Assembly (NCBI GenBank): GCA_016875215.1
Contig: VGRX01000005.1
Coordinates: forward strand, 1-54,055
Reading direction: 5' to 3'
DNA length: 54,055 nt
Source of the DNA: Deltaproteobacteria bacterium
Lineage (GTDB): Bacteria > Myxococcota_A > UBA9042 > CAIXZC01
The position numbers were made by a program, and so were the translations under genes. Positions 35,647 through 43,249 of this stretch are shown here, one piece after another (within the stretch, counting starts at the first letter, position 1; every line of letters begins with the position of its first letter). The notes under the pieces are model-generated. The model saw nothing but the letters and a program-made list of their open reading frames with translations, searched no databases and was not told the DNA's origin.

Positions 35647-37125
35647 ATGCGCCCACTGCTGCCGACGGATTCCGGCAGGGAAGGCCCTTTGCCCGGGACC
35701 GCAGGTGCGGCGTCCGGCGGGGGGACTGCAGGCTCCCGGTCCGGTTCGAAGTCCCTGTCCGCCCCCCAGGCCGTGGAACGCCGCATGGGGGGACTCGAGG
35801 CCGTCCTCCTCGTGGTCGGAAGCATGGTCGGCACCGGCATCCTCGTGACCCCCGCCCTGGTCTCAGCAAGCACCGGGAGTCTGGCCGGCGTCCTCCTCGT
35901 CTGGGGAGGGGGGGCTCTATATGCCCTCCTCGGCGCCCTGTCCCAGGCCGAGCTGGCCACCCGCTATCCCAGGGCCGGCGGGGACTACGTGTTCCTCCGG
36001 GAATCGTTCGGCCCTCTCCCCGCGTTCCTGTGCGGCTGGGTCTCGCTGACCATCGGGTTTGCAGGTTCGATCGCTGCCCTGGCACGCACCTGCGGCCAGT
36101 ACCTCCTCCGGGCCTTTCCCGGGGTGGCCGGATGGCTTCCAGTCACCCCGGCCCACACGGAACAGACCGTCTCAGCCCTGTCCGCCGAGACGGGCGTCGC
36201 CATCGCGCTCATCCTGGCACTGACCGTTGTGAACCTGCTCGGCGTCAGTGCGGGGAGCCGGACGCAGGCCGTGCTGACCGCTGCCAAGGTCGCAGGGCTT
36301 GCAGTGCTCATGGGCGTCGCACTGTGGGCCAGCCCCCAGGCGCCCCCTCCGGTCCCCCCGTCGCTCCCGCTCTCCGCAGCACTGCTCCCGGTCGTCTTCT
36401 CCTACACCGGGTGGAATGACGCCATCTACGTGGGCGGCGAGATCACGAGGCCCGGCCGCAACCTCCCCCTGGCCCTGATCGCCGGGACCGCAGCGGTCGC
36501 TCTCCTCTACCTGCTGTTCAATGCCGCATTCGTCCTCTCGACCGGAGGCCACGTCGGCCAGGGAAAGGACCTCGCCGTTGCCGCGGCCATGGCCGAGGTG
36601 GCCCTCGGACCCGGCAGCCAGCCCCTCGTGGCGAGCCTTGCCGCACTGCTCGTCTCAGGGACCATGGCCGCACTGGCCGTGACCGGCCCCCGCATCGCGT
36701 ACGCCATGGCCCGGGACGCGGCCCTCCCGCAATCGCTCGGTCGCCTCAATGCCCGCCAGGCACCGACCAATGCCCTGCTCTTCCAGGCTGCCGTCGCCGT
36801 CCTGTTCGTGCTGGCCGGGTCGTTGCAGCAGATCATCGAGTGGGTGGGGTTTGCCCTGGTGGTCTTCTCCGCCCTGGCCACGGCCTGCATCTTCGTGGAG
36901 CGCGCCCGCCGTCCGTTGCCGGAAAACGCAACCGGGTATCGGATCCCCCTTTGGCCCCTGCCCCCGGTGCTCTACATCGGGATCAGCCTGGCCATCGCCG
37001 TCGCGGTGGCCCTGGAGGACCCCGGCCAGGCACTCTACGGCATCCTCCTCGTGCTGTCCGGCCTTCCGGTCTACTGGCTGTCACGCTCGAAGACGAGGCT
37101 TAAACAAGAAAGGGACCCGCCCTGA
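35647..37125 (+). CDS. APC-family amino acid permease
   Basis: VGSMVGTGI, AELATRYPRAGGDY, FSYTGWN, GEI..P.RNLP, PRIAYAMARD. Confidence 0.92.
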   Translation: MRPLLPTDSGREGPLPGTAGAASGGGTAGSRSGSKSLSAPQAVERRMGGLEAVLLVVGSMVGTGILVTPALVSASTGSLAGVLLVWGGGALYALLGALSQAELATRYPRAGGDYVFLRESFGPLPAFLCGWVSLTIGFAGSIAALARTCGQYLLRAFPGVAGWLPVTPAHTEQTVSALSAETGVAIALILALTVVNLLGVSAGSRTQAVLTAAKVAGLAVLMGVALWASPQAPPPVPPSLPLSAALLPVVFSYTGWNDAIYVGGEITRPGRNLPLALIAGTAAVALLYLLFNAAFVLSTGGHVGQGKDLAVAAAMAEVALGPGSQPLVASLAALLVSGTMAALAVTGPRIAYAMARDAALPQSLGRLNARQAPTNALLFQAAVAVLFVLAGSLQQIIEWVGFALVVFSALATACIFVERARRPLPENATGYRIPLWPLPPVLYIGISLAIAVAVALEDPGQALYGILLVLSGLPVYWLSRSKTRLKQERDPP

Positions 37126-37140
37126 CGGGGGGTCCCTTTC
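37101..37140 (-). terminator. Intrinsic terminator (possibly bidirectional)
   Basis: 11-bp stem 37108-37118/37130-37140; minus strand ends TTTCTTGTTT. The permease stop codon lies in the loop. Confidence 0.75.
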
Positions 37141-37337
37141 CGATCTTTCAGGGCTCGCCACATTAACCGAAGAACTCAGAAGGACTACAAGAGGGAGCAG
37201 GGCTAGCGACGAGCCCGTTGTGCTGCCGCCCTGCCGTGTGGAAATGTCCCTCGAACCGTTGCAGCCCGGTCCCAGGGGTTCCGTAAATGGGGGGAAAAAG
37301 CGTGGAACAAAGGAATATGGGGACTGGAATCAAACGT
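37101..37337 (-). ncRNA. Candidate sigma-54-dependent small RNA (~235 nt)
   Basis: Bounded by a consensus -24/-12 promoter and a terminator; stems need G-U pairs that form only on this strand; no RBS-led ORF inside. Confidence 0.6.
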
Positions 37338-37347
37338 CCTTTCATTA

Positions 37348-37363
37348 TGCAAGTGCCGTGCCA
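37348..37363 (-). promoter_or_regulatory. Sigma-54 (RpoN) -24/-12 promoter
   Basis: Minus strand TGGCACGGCACTTGCA = TGGCAC-N5-TTGCA consensus. Confidence 0.8.
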
Positions 37364-37741
37364 GCCAGCGACTCGCTGGACGTTTTCTTTTGATTTCGCC
37401 AGATTTCCTTGCCGCCCACCCATCGGAATCACGGCCGATCGAGGGCTTGACAGGCGGTTGGGGCGGACGCCCAGGGAATCCGCAGATCGGATCGTGCGGG
37501 TGACGCGTCGCGTTGATTGCCGACTCCTGCGTCATGAGGCAAAACAGGGGGCAAACTGTATCGCCGTGAAACACTTCTGCCCTTCTCTTGGACCAAACGT
37601 CCGATCTCGTGCCCCCAGGCCCTTTTGGAACAGGTGGTAGAATTGTTCCAACGTGAAACATGTGTTCCGGGAAGGAGCAGAGCCAGGAGGGAACCCGGGG
37701 CTGGCGAAAGGGAGCGGTCGGTCAAGCCTCGACCGGCCGGC

Positions 37742-38128
37742 TCAGCGGGCGCACACGACCTCGATTTCGACCCGGGCCCCGCGGGGTAGCGCTGCCACCG
37801 CGACCGTGGCCCGGGCAGGCAGGCTGCCGGTGAAGTAGCCGGCATAGACCTCATTGACCTTGGGAAAGTCACCCATGTCCACCAGGAAGATCGTGCTCTT
37901 CACCACGTTTCCCAGCGTGAATCCGGCCGCTTCCACCACCGCCCGGACGTTCTCCATCACCAGGCGGGTCTGCGCCGTGATGTCTCCGGTCTCCATCTGG
38001 CCGGTCGTCGGGCTGAGCGGGATCTGCCCGGAAGCAAAAAGGAGATCGCTGCACGAGTCAACCAGGACCGCCTGGCTGTAAGGCCCGATGGCCTTTGGAG
38101 CGTTGTCGGTCTGTATCGTTCTAGCCAT
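37742..38128 (-). CDS. ridA: RidA/YjgF enamine-imine deaminase
   Basis: APKAIGPYSQAV, SGQIP, VKSTIFL.DM.DF..VNEVY, PARATVAV..LP.GA.VEIE. Confidence 0.93.
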   Translation of the reverse strand: MARTIQTDNAPKAIGPYSQAVLVDSCSDLLFASGQIPLSPTTGQMETGDITAQTRLVMENVRAVVEAAGFTLGNVVKSTIFLVDMGDFPKVNEVYAGYFTGSLPARATVAVAALPRGARVEIEVVCAR

Positions 38129-38241
38129 CCCTGAACCTCCGCACGCGGGTGGAACGCGCGCAGAGTTGCCCATTTTTTGACAGATTGCAAGGGGGGAATA
38201 GCCTTGACTCGGACGTGTTCGTGCGGACTCCGGGGGATGAC

Positions 38242-39171
38242 ATGAGGCTGCGGGACGAAGGGAAGCTGAAGCCGAAGATGGAGTTCCAGTTCGAGACCCG
38301 GCATTTCTTCCTGCTGGTCGTCTGGAGCATCCCCCTGTCCGTCATCATCTTCTGCACCGGTCTGTTCATCGGGCAGAAGGGGCAGGCAGGCACTCGGGGC
38401 GTGACGCTGAACAACCCGCAGGGCAACGGCCCGGAGGTTCGGGAGAACCGTCCGGACCCGCTGCTCAGCTCGCTGTCGTTTCTGTCCCGGCTGGTCCGAC
38501 ACCCCGAGAAGAGGCAGCACGAGGATGCCGCACTCGATGCCCTGGCAGCGCTTCGCGAGGACATCCTGAAGAAGCAGGAGCGTGAGGATGCCGTGCTTCG
38601 CGCGCAGCTCGAGCGGGAGGTGTTCAGCCCTCCTGCAGCCCCTCCGGTCGACCCGCAGCAGGTGCTGGCGTCGTCCAACGGCGTGCAGGCGACCCTGGGG
38701 CGCTCCCGTCAGGCCAACATGGGGCTGGTCCCGGATCTGTCGGCCCTGGCCGCTCCGGTCGAGCCCGAGCCGGTACCCGTACCCGAGGCGCAACTCGCTG
38801 CAGAGCTGCCGGAGCCGGTTGCCCCTCTTGCGGACCCAGCCCACGTGCAGGAGCCTGCTGCAAGAGCCGATGGTCTGCCCCAGGGGGACCCGTCGCAGAT
38901 CGAGGTGAACGCGGACGGCCGCCAGCGCTTCTACGCCATCCAGGCCAAGGCATTCCGGGAGAAGTCGGACGCCGATGTCTTCCTCGGCTATCTCCAGCAG
39001 GAGCTCACCAGGTCCGAGTACAAGGCCTTCATCATGCCCGTCGAGCTGCCCGGCAAAGGCAAGTGGTACCGCGTTCGCATCGGCAAGTTCCAGACCCGGC
39101 TGGACGCCGAGAAGTTCAAGCAGTCGTTCGAGAAGAAGCTCGGGCTTGAAACCTTCCTCGTGACTCTGTAA
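38242..39171 (+). CDS. SPOR-domain membrane protein (FtsN/DedD-like)
   Basis: One N-terminal TM, Pro-rich linker, C-terminal YAIQAKAF...KGKWYRVRIGKF. Confidence 0.85.
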   Translation: MRLRDEGKLKPKMEFQFETRHFFLLVVWSIPLSVIIFCTGLFIGQKGQAGTRGVTLNNPQGNGPEVRENRPDPLLSSLSFLSRLVRHPEKRQHEDAALDALAALREDILKKQEREDAVLRAQLEREVFSPPAAPPVDPQQVLASSNGVQATLGRSRQANMGLVPDLSALAAPVEPEPVPVPEAQLAAELPEPVAPLADPAHVQEPAARADGLPQGDPSQIEVNADGRQRFYAIQAKAFREKSDADVFLGYLQQELTRSEYKAFIMPVELPGKGKWYRVRIGKFQTRLDAEKFKQSFEKKLGLETFLVTL

Positions 39172-41144: not shown

Positions 41145-43249
41145 CAGCGGACCTCCTCTGTTGCCGGGGCCGCAAGGACTCCGGACGTCAGTCTGCACAG
41201 AGCGAGGTACCAGTCGGCACGGGCGGACGCAGAGGCCTCCGCCGGCAGCTCGAGCGCCGCATCCAGAACGTCGGCAGCCGGAGTCGCAGCAGCCAGCTCG
41301 GTGAACAGCATCTGCCGGAGGGCCGGGTCGACCACGGCCGAGGCCAGACGCACGCGGGCCTGCCGAGGATACCGACTGCATTCCCGCACCGCATCGGCCA
41401 GAAGGTCATCCCGGCGCCACGAGTCGGCAATCGACAGCAGTTGCCTCTCCAACGCATCCAGCGTCGAGGCCTTCTCCTCCGACGTCGAGGCCGCCAGCCG
41501 GATTGCGCCCCGGGCGGCCACGTATCGGTCCTGCAACGCCGCTGCCACCCTTGCAGCGTGCTCCGTGTCCCGGTTGGCCAGCAGGAAGAGCAGCAGCGCA
41601 AACCGGGCATCGTCCCGGGAAGAGGGGTCTTCCAGCAGGTCCAGCGTCTGCATGGCCAGGGCGACGGACTTCGGGGCCACCTGTCTCGCCAGGCAGGTCG
41701 CTGCCTCCTTTCGCATCTCGCCGTCCGCTATTCGGGGTACCGTAGCGGTCGCATCGGAATCGAGCCCCGCACAGACCAGGCAGCTTCGGTACCACGCCCG
41801 CTCGCGCATGTCGTCCGGACCGCCGGACACGATGCGACGGACCTCCCGAGGGGCAGAGGCACAGCAGGCCGCCAGCACCTCGTCCGACAGATCCGGTCCG
41901 AGTCGAGTCTTCGCCTCGCGGTAGACCTCCTCCAGGCGAGCCGGATCCTTGCTGCACAGACCCGCAAACATAGTGGTTGCCGCCTCGCGTGCGCGCGCCG
42001 GAGGCAGGTGCGTCAGAACCAGGTGGAGAGCCATGGCAGGCCTTTGCTCGAAGAGCCCCGACGCGATGCTCTCGGCCGCTTCGGCCCGGTACGCTCGGTC
42101 GCCGATGCGCAGCACGAGACCGACGGCCCTGTCGGGAGAGGCCGGAACCACTCCCGGAGCCGCCGCGGCATAGACCTCGTCCCGATCGAGCGGCAGGGTC
42201 AGGTGCTCGGACAACGAGAGCGCGGCCTCGGGCAGCCGCGTGGCGAGCCGAAGCGCCACGTCCAGCAGTGCCCATCGTCTCACCAGCCTGGACTCGATTC
42301 CCTGCTCGACGGATTCCGGCCCGAGAACAGCGCCGGCAGCGGCCGACTCCGCACGTGACCGAGCCATGGCAAAATCGTTGAGCAGCGGCTCGACGATGCG
42401 ATCGAGCCACATCGCCACCGAGTCCGGGCCGTGTCTCTGCACCGCTGGAAGGAGAGAGACAAGCATCTGTTCGCGGACGATGCGCGACTCCACGGTCGAC
42501 AGAACGGCCAGCGCTGCGTTTGCGTCCAGCGCGGCCAGGTTCTCGGCGATGGCCGCCACCAGGGCAACGTGCCTCTCCCCCGGAATCCCCCGGATCACAC
42601 GGAGTGCGGCCGCCGTGTCCTGCCCGGCCAGGGCCAGCACGGCCGTGCGGACCTCCTCCAGGTCTGGGTGGCGGGCAGCGCACGGGCCGATTCTGCCGGC
42701 AGCGACCTCGGGTGCGTAGCGGGCCTCGACCCGGGCGATGCCGAGCTCCAGGCGGCATCGCTCGGGCGGCTCGCTGATCTCCGCCGCGGCCGCTGCGGCC
42801 ATGCGCAGGAGCGTGTCCACCTCCGGCGAACGAGGGTGGGGCGCTGCTGCCGGAGGCAGCCCTGGTGTCGGAACCTCGGTCTCGGGCAGCGCAGGCATCG
42901 CTGCCTGGGTTCCGGTCGCGTCACCGGCCGTCTGCGCCGCCACGCCCGTCGCAGCATCGGTGCCGGATGCGTCACCCGGCCCTCCGGACGGACTGCCTGC
43001 GCCCCCCGAGGGGTGCGCCACTCCCCCCCCGGCTGGCTCGCCCGGCAGAGCGGGACCCGCATCGCCGCGCCTCTCACCGAGCCGGCGGGGAGGGCCCGCA
43101 TCCGGCGCAGGGGCCTCCACCGGGCTTTGGTTGCACCCTGTCGCCTGGACCACGACCGCAAGCAGAGCGGATGCAAGGAGCATCGGGCAAATCCGGCCGA
43201 CACACCAGGGAATCCGGGGGTGCGCAGTTTCGGGTAGATTCAGTGCCAC
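41144..43249 (-). CDS. Hypothetical alpha-helical repeat lipoprotein; start uncertain
   Basis: Signal-like LLASALLAVVVQATGC, low-complexity linker, Ala/Leu-rich helical repeats; stop overlaps the prmC start. Confidence 0.7.
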   Translation of the reverse strand: MALNLPETAHPRIPWCVGRICPMLLASALLAVVVQATGCNQSPVEAPAPDAGPPRRLGERRGDAGPALPGEPAGGGVAHPSGGAGSPSGGPGDASGTDAATGVAAQTAGDATGTQAAMPALPETEVPTPGLPPAAAPHPRSPEVDTLLRMAAAAAAEISEPPERCRLELGIARVEARYAPEVAAGRIGPCAARHPDLEEVRTAVLALAGQDTAAALRVIRGIPGERHVALVAAIAENLAALDANAALAVLSTVESRIVREQMLVSLLPAVQRHGPDSVAMWLDRIVEPLLNDFAMARSRAESAAAGAVLGPESVEQGIESRLVRRWALLDVALRLATRLPEAALSLSEHLTLPLDRDEVYAAAAPGVVPASPDRAVGLVLRIGDRAYRAEAAESIASGLFEQRPAMALHLVLTHLPPARAREAATTMFAGLCSKDPARLEEVYREAKTRLGPDLSDEVLAACCASAPREVRRIVSGGPDDMRERAWYRSCLVCAGLDSDATATVPRIADGEMRKEAATCLARQVAPKSVALAMQTLDLLEDPSSRDDARFALLLFLLANRDTEHAARVAAALQDRYVAARGAIRLAASTSEEKASTLDALERQLLSIADSWRRDDLLADAVRECSRYPRQARVRLASAVVDPALRQMLFTELAAATPAADVLDAALELPAEASASARADWYLALCRLTSGVLAAPATEEVR

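Follow-up and report, generated by a model that had tools for sequence, protein, structure and literature searches.

The RNA gene, its promoter and the upstream palindromes

The stretch analysed here (the window) comprises 54,055 nucleotides of contig VGRX01000005.1 in assembly GCA_016875215.1, which belongs to a deltaproteobacterial genome (5.9 Mb, 857 contigs, 94% complete). A predicted small RNA (sRNA) gene lies on its minus strand in a 615-bp gap, with ridA upstream on the same strand and an amino-acid permease gene convergent to it. The RNA element is single-copy in this genome. The features at the locus are as follows.

37102..37337, minus strand: predicted non-coding RNA of 236 nt, running from a predicted +1, set 12 nt past the C of the -12 GC, through the U tract
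37348..37363, minus strand: sigma-54 promoter TGGCAC-N5-TTGCA (TGGCACGGCACTTGCA) with its -24 and -12 elements, an exact consensus match
37557..37573, minus strand: second activator-type palindrome TGTTTCACGGCGATACA, about -228 from the +1, 17 bp like the distal one
37644..37660, minus strand: distal activator-type palindrome TGTTTCACGTTGGAACA (TGT-N11-ACA), about -315 from the +1
37742..38173, minus strand: ridA (Ribonuc_L-PSP, PF01042), the upstream neighbour, given as context outside the RNA
35647..37125, plus strand: amino-acid permease gene (PF13520), the convergent neighbour, given as context only

A real, conserved and uncatalogued gene for a non-coding RNA of about 236 nt with a sigma-54-type promoter is strongly supported by sequence comparison, because the conservation is bounded by the promoter and the terminator, the helices covary, no open reading frame (ORF) is conserved, and no match was found in Rfam. 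In the same-genus relative, the DNA match spans 37366 to 37100, from promoter to terminator, and the 400 bp upstream were unmatched. A DNA search of 41 related genomes matched nine of the 12 other genomes of the same family (f1). A covariance model of the RNA (R1; 235 positions, 32 pairs) matched the window at 37101-37337 with 192 bits, and found exactly one full-length copy in 12 of the 13 family genomes, including two divergent copies in genus g6 which were overlooked by the DNA search. The order comprises the same 13 genomes as the family. The sole family genome without an R1 match (G012) is 84% complete. With strict filters, the model matched nothing in the 94 genomes of the class outside family f1.

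Pattern scans extended the search to other sequence collections. Among species-representative genomes 13 loci were found, nine of them in the family, from records named as uncultured Myxococcales or as proteobacterial metagenome-assembled genomes (MAGs); the four matches outside the group (records of Marinobacter, Armatimonadota, Gemmobacter and Oceanococcus) were unconfirmed by R1. The scan of metagenome contigs gave 22 loci, of which nine were confirmed by the model and 13 were unconfirmed. The sequencing runs carrying the DNA of the region are lake-water metagenomes. DNA near-identical to positions 36900-37800 was also seen in contigs of eight lake-water metagenome runs from eight studies, two of them possibly the source, and four further runs contained at least half of the sampled words of this interval.

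The Rfam search gave no match at the gathering score, either in the whole window or in 16 homologous loci. Within 36900-37900 only chance-level rows appeared (E above 2), with nothing relevant up to E = 10. The sequence-only reading of this DNA had proposed a new, unannotated sigma-54-type RNA gene, whose novelty would be supported by absence from Rfam together with conserved homologues. Both were found, and the proposal is now strongly supported.

The same reading had placed a perfect TGGCAC-N5-TTGCA at 37363-37348 on the minus strand. This promoter is indeed present. The 54-kb window has a single exact TGGCAC-N5-TTGCW where 0.04 would be expected; of 100 shuffles, 4 contained such a site. 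When one mismatch was allowed, two promoter-like sites were found against 1.19 expected, and therefore only the exact match stands out; the second site, at 41532-41547 on the minus strand (TGGCAGCGGCGTTGCA), has one mismatch. The promoter was retained in all nine aligned full-length relatives, as well as in the two genus g6 genomes (G010 and G006), and the MAFFT alignment showed TTGGCACG-N4-TTGC in every full-length relative. No sigma-70-like promoter was found in 36600-38300 by the promoter scan.

Palindromes of the form TGT-N11-ACA, up to three in number, lie upstream of the RNA promoter in every family member, and are likely candidate activator sites as judged from their sequence and position. 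In genus g1 (the window and G001), the two palindromes have identical offsets in both genomes. The other family genera usually have one palindrome at about -85 to -105 plus a tandem pair at about -170 to -195, and genus g6 has the form TGTTGCA-N3-TGCAACA (core TTGCA-N3-TGCAA). In the upstream 400 nt of nine loci there are 12 exact TGT-N11-ACA sites, whereas the remainder of these loci predicts 0.39. The strict palindrome occurs at only three distinct sites in the 5.9-Mb genome, two of which are at this locus, so the regulon may consist of essentially one promoter.

The window's genome also encodes rpoN (Sigma54_DBD on contig C451, 203.5 bits) and about 14 enhancer-binding-type proteins, with regulator-like AAA+ matches on 14 contigs. 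Thus, the three sequence features by which a sigma-54 enhancer-activated promoter is recognized are all found at the locus: the -24 GG and -12 GC at a fixed spacing, inverted repeats roughly 80-300 bp upstream, and a genome that encodes RpoN and enhancer-binding proteins. Genome-wide, 25 exact TGGCAC-N5-TTGCW sites were counted (for example C196:3720, C553, C380:2154 and C689:1281), which provide a ready list for the sigma-54 regulon of this uncultured lineage. A rough composition estimate would predict about five such sites, and several of the 25 have a Shine-Dalgarno sequence and an ATG no more than about 40 nt downstream.

Fold, pseudoknot and unpaired segments

Consensus folding with RNAalifold predicted a 5' hairpin (H1), a long hairpin (H3) and the terminator (H4), with the first 58 nt or so unpaired. 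A further helix (H2) was spotted by eye, as a CAG and three variable bases that pair with three variable bases and a CUG; variants of the variable part include GGC/GCC, GAC/GUC, AGA/UCU and CGA/UCG. The helices and the unpaired segments, all on the minus strand, are listed below.

37301..37335: unpaired C/U-rich 5' region, the proposed seed, with GUUUGAUUCCAGUCCCCAUA at 37335-37316 and UUGUUCCACG at 37310-37301
37278-37267 with 37259-37247: H1 hairpin, 9 of 11 pairs compensatory, 89% of cells paired
37233-37228 with 37203-37198: H2, pseudoknot helix CAGGGC/GCCCUG, which encloses the 5' strand of H3
37216-37206 with 37161-37151: H3, 11-bp core GGGCUCGUCGC/GUGGCGAGCCC, 96-99% paired
37167..37185: loop segment GUCCUUCUGAGUUCUUCGG, whose core CUGAGUUCUUCG is invariant except in genus g6
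37140-37131 with 37117-37108, tail to 37102: H4 and U tract, intrinsic terminator, 8 of 10 pairs compensatory

The stems diverge in sequence yet remain complementary in the MAFFT alignment. In an alignment of nine sequences, 94.1% of the cells were paired and 20 of 38 pairs were compensatory, whereas slid controls were 35-50% paired. The alignment of 17 distinct sequences gave similar values (93.9% and 24 of 38; slid controls 36-50%); the fit of this alignment to R1 gives H1, H3 and H4 an advantage, and H2 lies outside the model. In either alignment, none of 500 shuffles matched any of five pairing measures. Four of the 11 pairs of H3 are compensatory and two positions are G-U; genus g6 has CCGCCGCG/CGCGGCGG in place of this helix.

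Helix H2 was paired in 95-96% of the cells. Three of its six pairs are compensatory, with three to four pair types each, and the other three are invariant. In alignment columns, H2 joins 109-115 with 146-151 and H3 joins 127-137 with 243-253. The 3' strand of H2 therefore lies between the two strands of H3, which indicates an H-type pseudoknot or two alternative folds. The crossing of H3 by H2 is a well-supported pseudoknot at the level of covariation, overlooked in the sequence-only reading, and the two helices might form simultaneously or alternate.

The other structural claims of that reading fared differently. A terminator with a U-rich tail, whose loop contains the stop codon of the permease gene, had been described; the terminator scan found the GC-rich hairpin and U tract, and the permease stop TGA (37123-37125, plus strand) falls within the 4-nt loop. 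The long hairpin holds as to its 11-bp core, which covaries, but not as to the proposed UAGCC/GGUUA extension, three of whose pairs form in only 4 of 15 sequences. Neither the inner CUGC/GUAG stem nor the UCCCUCUU loop that it was thought to present is conserved. The nine pairs of the inner stem and the extension are 62% paired, a value matched or exceeded in 490 of 500 shuffles; the CUG of the proposed inner stem belongs instead to the covarying helix H2. The covariation check that had been suggested thus sustains H1, the core of H3 and the terminator, but not the inner stem and the extension. The C/U-rich 5' segment, also pointed out in that reading, is the best conserved unpaired part of the RNA.

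These comparisons also bear on whether the promoter match and the hairpins could be a coincidence in a GC-rich intergenic gap. The one-mismatch promoter count (2 versus 1.19) and a single-sequence minimum free energy (MFE) z-score of only -2.05 are compatible with chance. However, the element is found in 12 of 13 genomes and on nine metagenome contigs, its covariation is far above the controls, and the promoter and the activator-type sites are conserved. Coincidence is refuted by these comparative data and deserves practically no credence.

The 5' region is unpaired in both the MFE and the consensus folds and is conserved within the family. In the MAFFT alignment of the relatives, the segment GTTTGATTCCAGTCCCCATA is conserved and the segment CTGAGTTCTTCG is invariant. 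It is very improbable that the transcript encodes a small protein or acts as a dual-function RNA. ORFs can be drawn mechanically on the RNA strand, such as 37163..37432 (89 amino acids), and there are also TTG-started frames inside the transcript. Against this, no ORF of at least 15 amino acids keeps its frame, length or start across 18 homologues, and the starts are mostly TTG without a Shine-Dalgarno sequence. The indels in the conserved 5' part are 1, 2, 4 and 5 nt long, so they are not multiples of three, and the substitutions follow base pairing. The earlier statement that no ORF led by a ribosome-binding site follows the +1 was therefore correct.

Candidate activator and shorter relatives

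The candidate activator is a response regulator of the NtrC type, with REC, sigma-54-interacting AAA+ and Fis-type HTH_8 domains (PF00072, PF00158 and PF02954). In the window's genome its gene is:

C310:1133-2527: candidate activator gene, 46-50% identity versus 40% for the next paralogue

Exactly one orthologue was found at E <=1e-100 in each of the 13 family genomes, with 51-57% identity between genera. The gene directly follows the RNA terminator on the same strand in G006 and G010 (genus g6) and in G008; in G002 (genus g2) a BamB-like gene lies between the two. In G012, the family genome without an R1 match, the contig with the regulator ends 1.3 kb upstream of it, short of the position of the RNA in the close relative G002. 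Orthologues were present in 58 of 107 genomes of the class, and in a sample of 401 genomes of the phylum, 46 of the 48 genomes with a regulator match were in the class, with two borderline cases outside. None of the NCBIfam equivalogs (NtrC, AtoC, LuxO, GlrR, ZraR and others) reached its cut-off for this protein. The regulator seems to be an orphan, since no histidine kinase gene is adjacent to it in any lineage examined. In the window's genome, a gene for a PilZ-domain protein follows the candidate activator gene (L075:2425-3246, contig C310).

A conserved TAGAAT/TAGGAT box lies about 30 nt before the start codon of the regulator in all 11 family loci shown (L076-L086), and is likely a sigma-70-type -10 element with a short leader, to judge from its sequence and position. 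The box is also present where the regulator adjoins the RNA. The regulator genes are therefore probably transcribed independently of the RNA.

Family f8 contains a shorter version of this arrangement, in which a sigma-54 promoter, palindromes of the TGT-N11-ACA type and a C/U-rich RNA of about 135-155 nt with a covarying hairpin, GUCUCCGGCCGG...CCGGCCGGAGAU, lie ahead of the regulator orthologue. When the filters were off, the best full-length match of R1 fell on the f8 RNA, on the correct strand, at all four loci searched, although weakly (E 0.008-0.85). The f8 RNAs align to R1 as the 5' unpaired region, H1 and the 3' hairpin, and the pseudoknot domain of about 100 nt is absent from them. A second covariance model (R2), built from the 5' domain only, matched 15 of 20 f8 genomes. 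Thirteen of the 15 have the RNA and the regulator on one strand, with the RNA 75-370 nt ahead; in the remaining two, the match is at a contig end. All 12 f8 matches that were checked have a TGGCA-N6-NTGC promoter about 30 nt upstream (TGGCAC in 11 and TGGCAT in G053), and most of them carry upstream palindromes. On the basis of these alignments, the f8 RNA resembles the window's RNA without its pseudoknot and appears related to it.

Across the class, R2 matched genomes of f1 and f8 and one genome of f10 only; in five further families, represented by one genome each, nothing was found. The shorter RNAs are located as follows.

L101:884-1183 (plus), L104:3059-3358 (minus), L107:3095-3394 (minus), L110:1185-1484 (plus) and L116-L130: f8 RNA loci
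G058:C46:4759-4850, minus strand (L144): f10 RNA of about 95 nt, with a perfect TGGCACGACACTTGCT promoter and the 5' sequence UUGUUUGAUUCCCCAUUU

In the f10 RNA, the single hairpin H1 serves as the terminator and is followed by U7. This RNA is not beside the regulator orthologue of its genome, which is on contig C11. The 5' core UUGAYUCCCCA is common to the family RNAs and the shorter f8 and f10 RNAs. The comparison of R1 and R2 across families therefore defines a shared core, which consists of the promoter, the palindromes, the 5' C/U-rich stretch with UUGAYUCCCCA, and H1.

Some weaker matches were set aside. Two in f10 (G021 and G034) were rejected as they have no promoter, and three extra weak copies in f8 (L131, L132 and L133) also have no sigma-54 promoter. 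L131 (G045:C59:2335-2409) and L133 (G046:C440:2736-2816) have a C/U-rich stretch and a strong hairpin, followed by CCUCCUU; by sequence, they may be chance matches or else paralogous sRNAs driven by another promoter.

The position of the RNA raises the question of whether it is only the cis-acting leader of the regulator gene, that is, a 5' untranslated region or attenuator in a sigma-54 autoregulation without an independent RNA. In genera g6 and g2 and in f8, the regulator gene does come straight after the RNA in the same orientation, and the 3' hairpin of f8 has no clear U tract in some genomes. However, the RNA has its own promoter and its own intrinsic terminator; a strong terminator with a U tract and a convergent next gene are seen in genera g1, g3 and g4 and in the window itself. 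Moreover, the regulator is unlinked in five of the seven family genera, and the regulator genes have their own TAGAAT-type -10 box even when they adjoin the RNA. A leader function is therefore improbable.

The association that holds across families, as far as gene order can tell, is with the orphan NtrC-type response regulator and not with the permease or ridA. The sequence-only reading had linked the RNA to nitrogen or amino acid status through these two neighbours. This link is unsupported, because the adjacency is not kept across families: the permease gene adjoins the RNA in four of nine large loci, and ridA, which is upstream of it in nine of 11 testable family genomes and six of seven metagenome contigs, was upstream in none of the seven f8 and f10 loci examined.

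Proposed action and known systems

The reading that we favour, with a probability of roughly 0.6, is a stand-alone sRNA of about 236 nt that would depend on the regulator and on sigma-54, and would act in trans, independently of Hfq, through its 5' end. The regulator, once phosphorylated by a kinase, would bind the TGT-N11-ACA palindromes, and together with RpoN would activate transcription of the sRNA. The RNA might then pair through its 5' C/U-rich region with mRNAs, as the UUGAYUCCCCA core is complementary to G-rich ribosome-binding regions. The family-specific pseudoknot domain could confer stability, or provide a second interaction surface or a protein-binding site. Trans action through C/U-rich loops had already been suggested from the sequence; such action is plausible for the 5' end, which is the conserved C/U-rich part, but not for the internal loop that was stressed at the time.

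Several points weigh against this proposal. The +1, the 3' end and the expression of the RNA are all predictions, because none of the sequencing runs that carry the region is an RNA run. Exact-complement and seed-anchored duplex scans of the genome revealed no target above chance. Exact complements of at least 11 nt were only chance-like 13-15-mers in GC-rich stem sequence, and none of the 3475 TGGGGA sites in the genome, used as seed anchors, was clearly at a start codon; the best non-self seed site, on contig C108, is an 11-nt perfect complement with no adjacent long ORF. For the invariant loop, a search of 13 genomes gave no long complementary site in excess of a reversed-pattern control: with the 19-nt complement and up to three mismatches, there were about one to three non-self matches per genome, similar to the control. 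The assignment of the activator draws on linkage in family f8 and in two of the seven f1 genera; the window's own genome has the RNA and the regulator on different contigs. The R1 match to the f8 RNAs is weak, as given above. The invariant stretches of 12-20 nt and the pseudoknot could equally indicate protein binding.

Two analyses of the regulator as a target were also made. Folding of whole-sRNA duplexes with the start regions of the regulator gave long duplexes, which overlap the terminator where the genes are adjacent, and was uninformative. Feedback on the regulator mRNA was discarded as a candidate, since only a 7-nt match was seen by eye in the window's genome and it is absent from G001.

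A sigma-54-dependent RNA that mainly binds or sequesters a protein, or that acts as a scaffold through the pseudoknot and the invariant loop, is rather unlikely, though likelier than the other alternatives. The pseudoknot covaries, the CUGAGUUCUUCG core of the loop is invariant across six genera and longer than a usual seed, and no complementary target emerged from the scans of the genome and of the 13 genomes. On the other side, the pseudoknot domain and the loop are missing in f8 and f10, and in g6 the loop is replaced by an unrelated sequence, whereas the f8, f10 and g6 versions all retain the promoter, the activator-type sites and the 5' region. Repeated GGA-type motifs are absent from the RNA, and the 94%-complete genome yielded none of the known sRNA-binding global regulators CsrA, Hfq and ProQ.

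To our knowledge, the sigma-54-dependent sRNAs that have their own two-component activator are very few, namely Qrr, GlmY/GlmZ, Pxr and a handful more. Such sRNAs head major decisions, for example on quorum sensing, cell-envelope synthesis and multicellular development. The Qrr RNAs are about 100 nt long and Hfq-dependent. By analogy, the circuit of the regulator and the trans-acting RNA described here resembles Pxr/PxrR, Qrr/LuxO and GlmY/GlrR.

The nearest system in organism group and logic is Pxr/PxrR (Nla19)/PxrK of Myxococcus xanthus, which, in the descriptions consulted, combines a sigma-54 promoter with a linked NtrC-like regulator in the absence of hfq. Likewise, records of relatives of the window's RNA are labelled 'uncultured Myxococcales', which is a likeness to the Pxr hosts at the level of the group. 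The stem-loop SL1 of Pxr is C-rich according to a printed Northern probe, and the targets of Pxr were given as unconfirmed as of 2025 (PMC11928866). However, Pxr is described as an RNA of 108 nt with three stem-loops, whereas the RNA here has 236 nt and a pseudoknot. The pxr gene is described as lying downstream of pxrR with the partner kinase gene adjacent, whereas the RNA here is upstream of the regulator or unlinked to it, with no adjacent kinase. In the accounts consulted, pxr is reported only in Cystobacterineae, and the regulator here is nearly confined to its own class (46 of 48 matching genomes), which counts as a further difference from the Pxr system. The 26-nt SL1 sequence, with up to three mismatches, was absent from the window's genome and 400 other genomes of the phylum sample. 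The sequence comparison with Pxr covers this 26-nt stretch, and the negative Rfam result may not extend to a Pxr model.

The Qrr/LuxO system of the Vibrionaceae has in common with the present one that sigma-54 and an NtrC-type regulator drive an sRNA, whose gene is beside that of the regulator. The LuxO site quoted in one report, TTGCAWWWTGCAA, has the same half-sites and spacing as the palindrome core here, for example that of genus g6 (PMC10162802). However, Hfq was not found in the window's genome, unlike the Hfq-dependence of Qrr, no Qrr match was obtained in Rfam, and the regulator is far below the NCBIfam cut-off for LuxO (337-396 versus 800 bits).

The glmY gene is described as having a sigma-54 promoter and, more than 100 bp upstream of it, three activator palindromes; downstream of the gene, the GlrK/GlrR two-component system is encoded under its own promoter (PMC4152352). 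The RNA here is similar in its up to three palindromes, and in the downstream regulator with its own -10 box in several lineages. The motif given for GlrR, TGTCN10GACA (18 bp), is one base longer than the TGT-N11-ACA palindrome (17 bp). Unlike GlmY/GlmZ, the RNA has no Rfam match, no adjacent kinase, and no overlapping sigma-70 promoter found in the scanned region; the regulator is also below the GlrR cut-off (316-332 versus 763 bits).

These comparisons describe a previously uncatalogued sRNA family in uncultured lake-water bacteria of the Myxococcota type, which is predicted to be of the known sigma-54/response-regulator kind, with its function deduced from sequence. The family comes with a promoter, candidate activator sites, a candidate activator and a covariation-supported fold including a pseudoknot, and the shorter relative in at least one more family reveals its conserved core. 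It can enter the RNA databases and aid the annotation of MAGs. It also provides an entry point for asking whether Pxr-like circuits exist beyond the fruiting myxobacteria. A broader and rather doubtful idea is that the module of the regulator, sigma-54 and an sRNA with a C-rich seed might be an ancient unit of Myxococcota; Pxr/PxrR would then be a late, rearranged branch, and the RNA here a distant, pseudoknot-gaining relative of Pxr that gates a life-style switch in non-fruiting, uncultured aquatic lineages.

The wider neighbourhood of the RNA has some further regularities. In most family genomes, the genes upstream of the RNA include one for a SPOR-domain protein and a SIS gene of the bacterial PGI type. 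Behind the pair of sRNA and regulator, genera g6 and g2 have an alpha/beta-hydrolase-like gene and then a convergent cluster of cdaA (DAC), ybbR and glmM, the last of the phosphoglucosamine mutase type (L051:1156-4462 in G006, and likewise in the loci of G010 and G002). Since these genes (SIS, SPOR and cdaA-ybbR-glmM) are of envelope type, the neighbourhood of the RNA appears to be related to the cell envelope.

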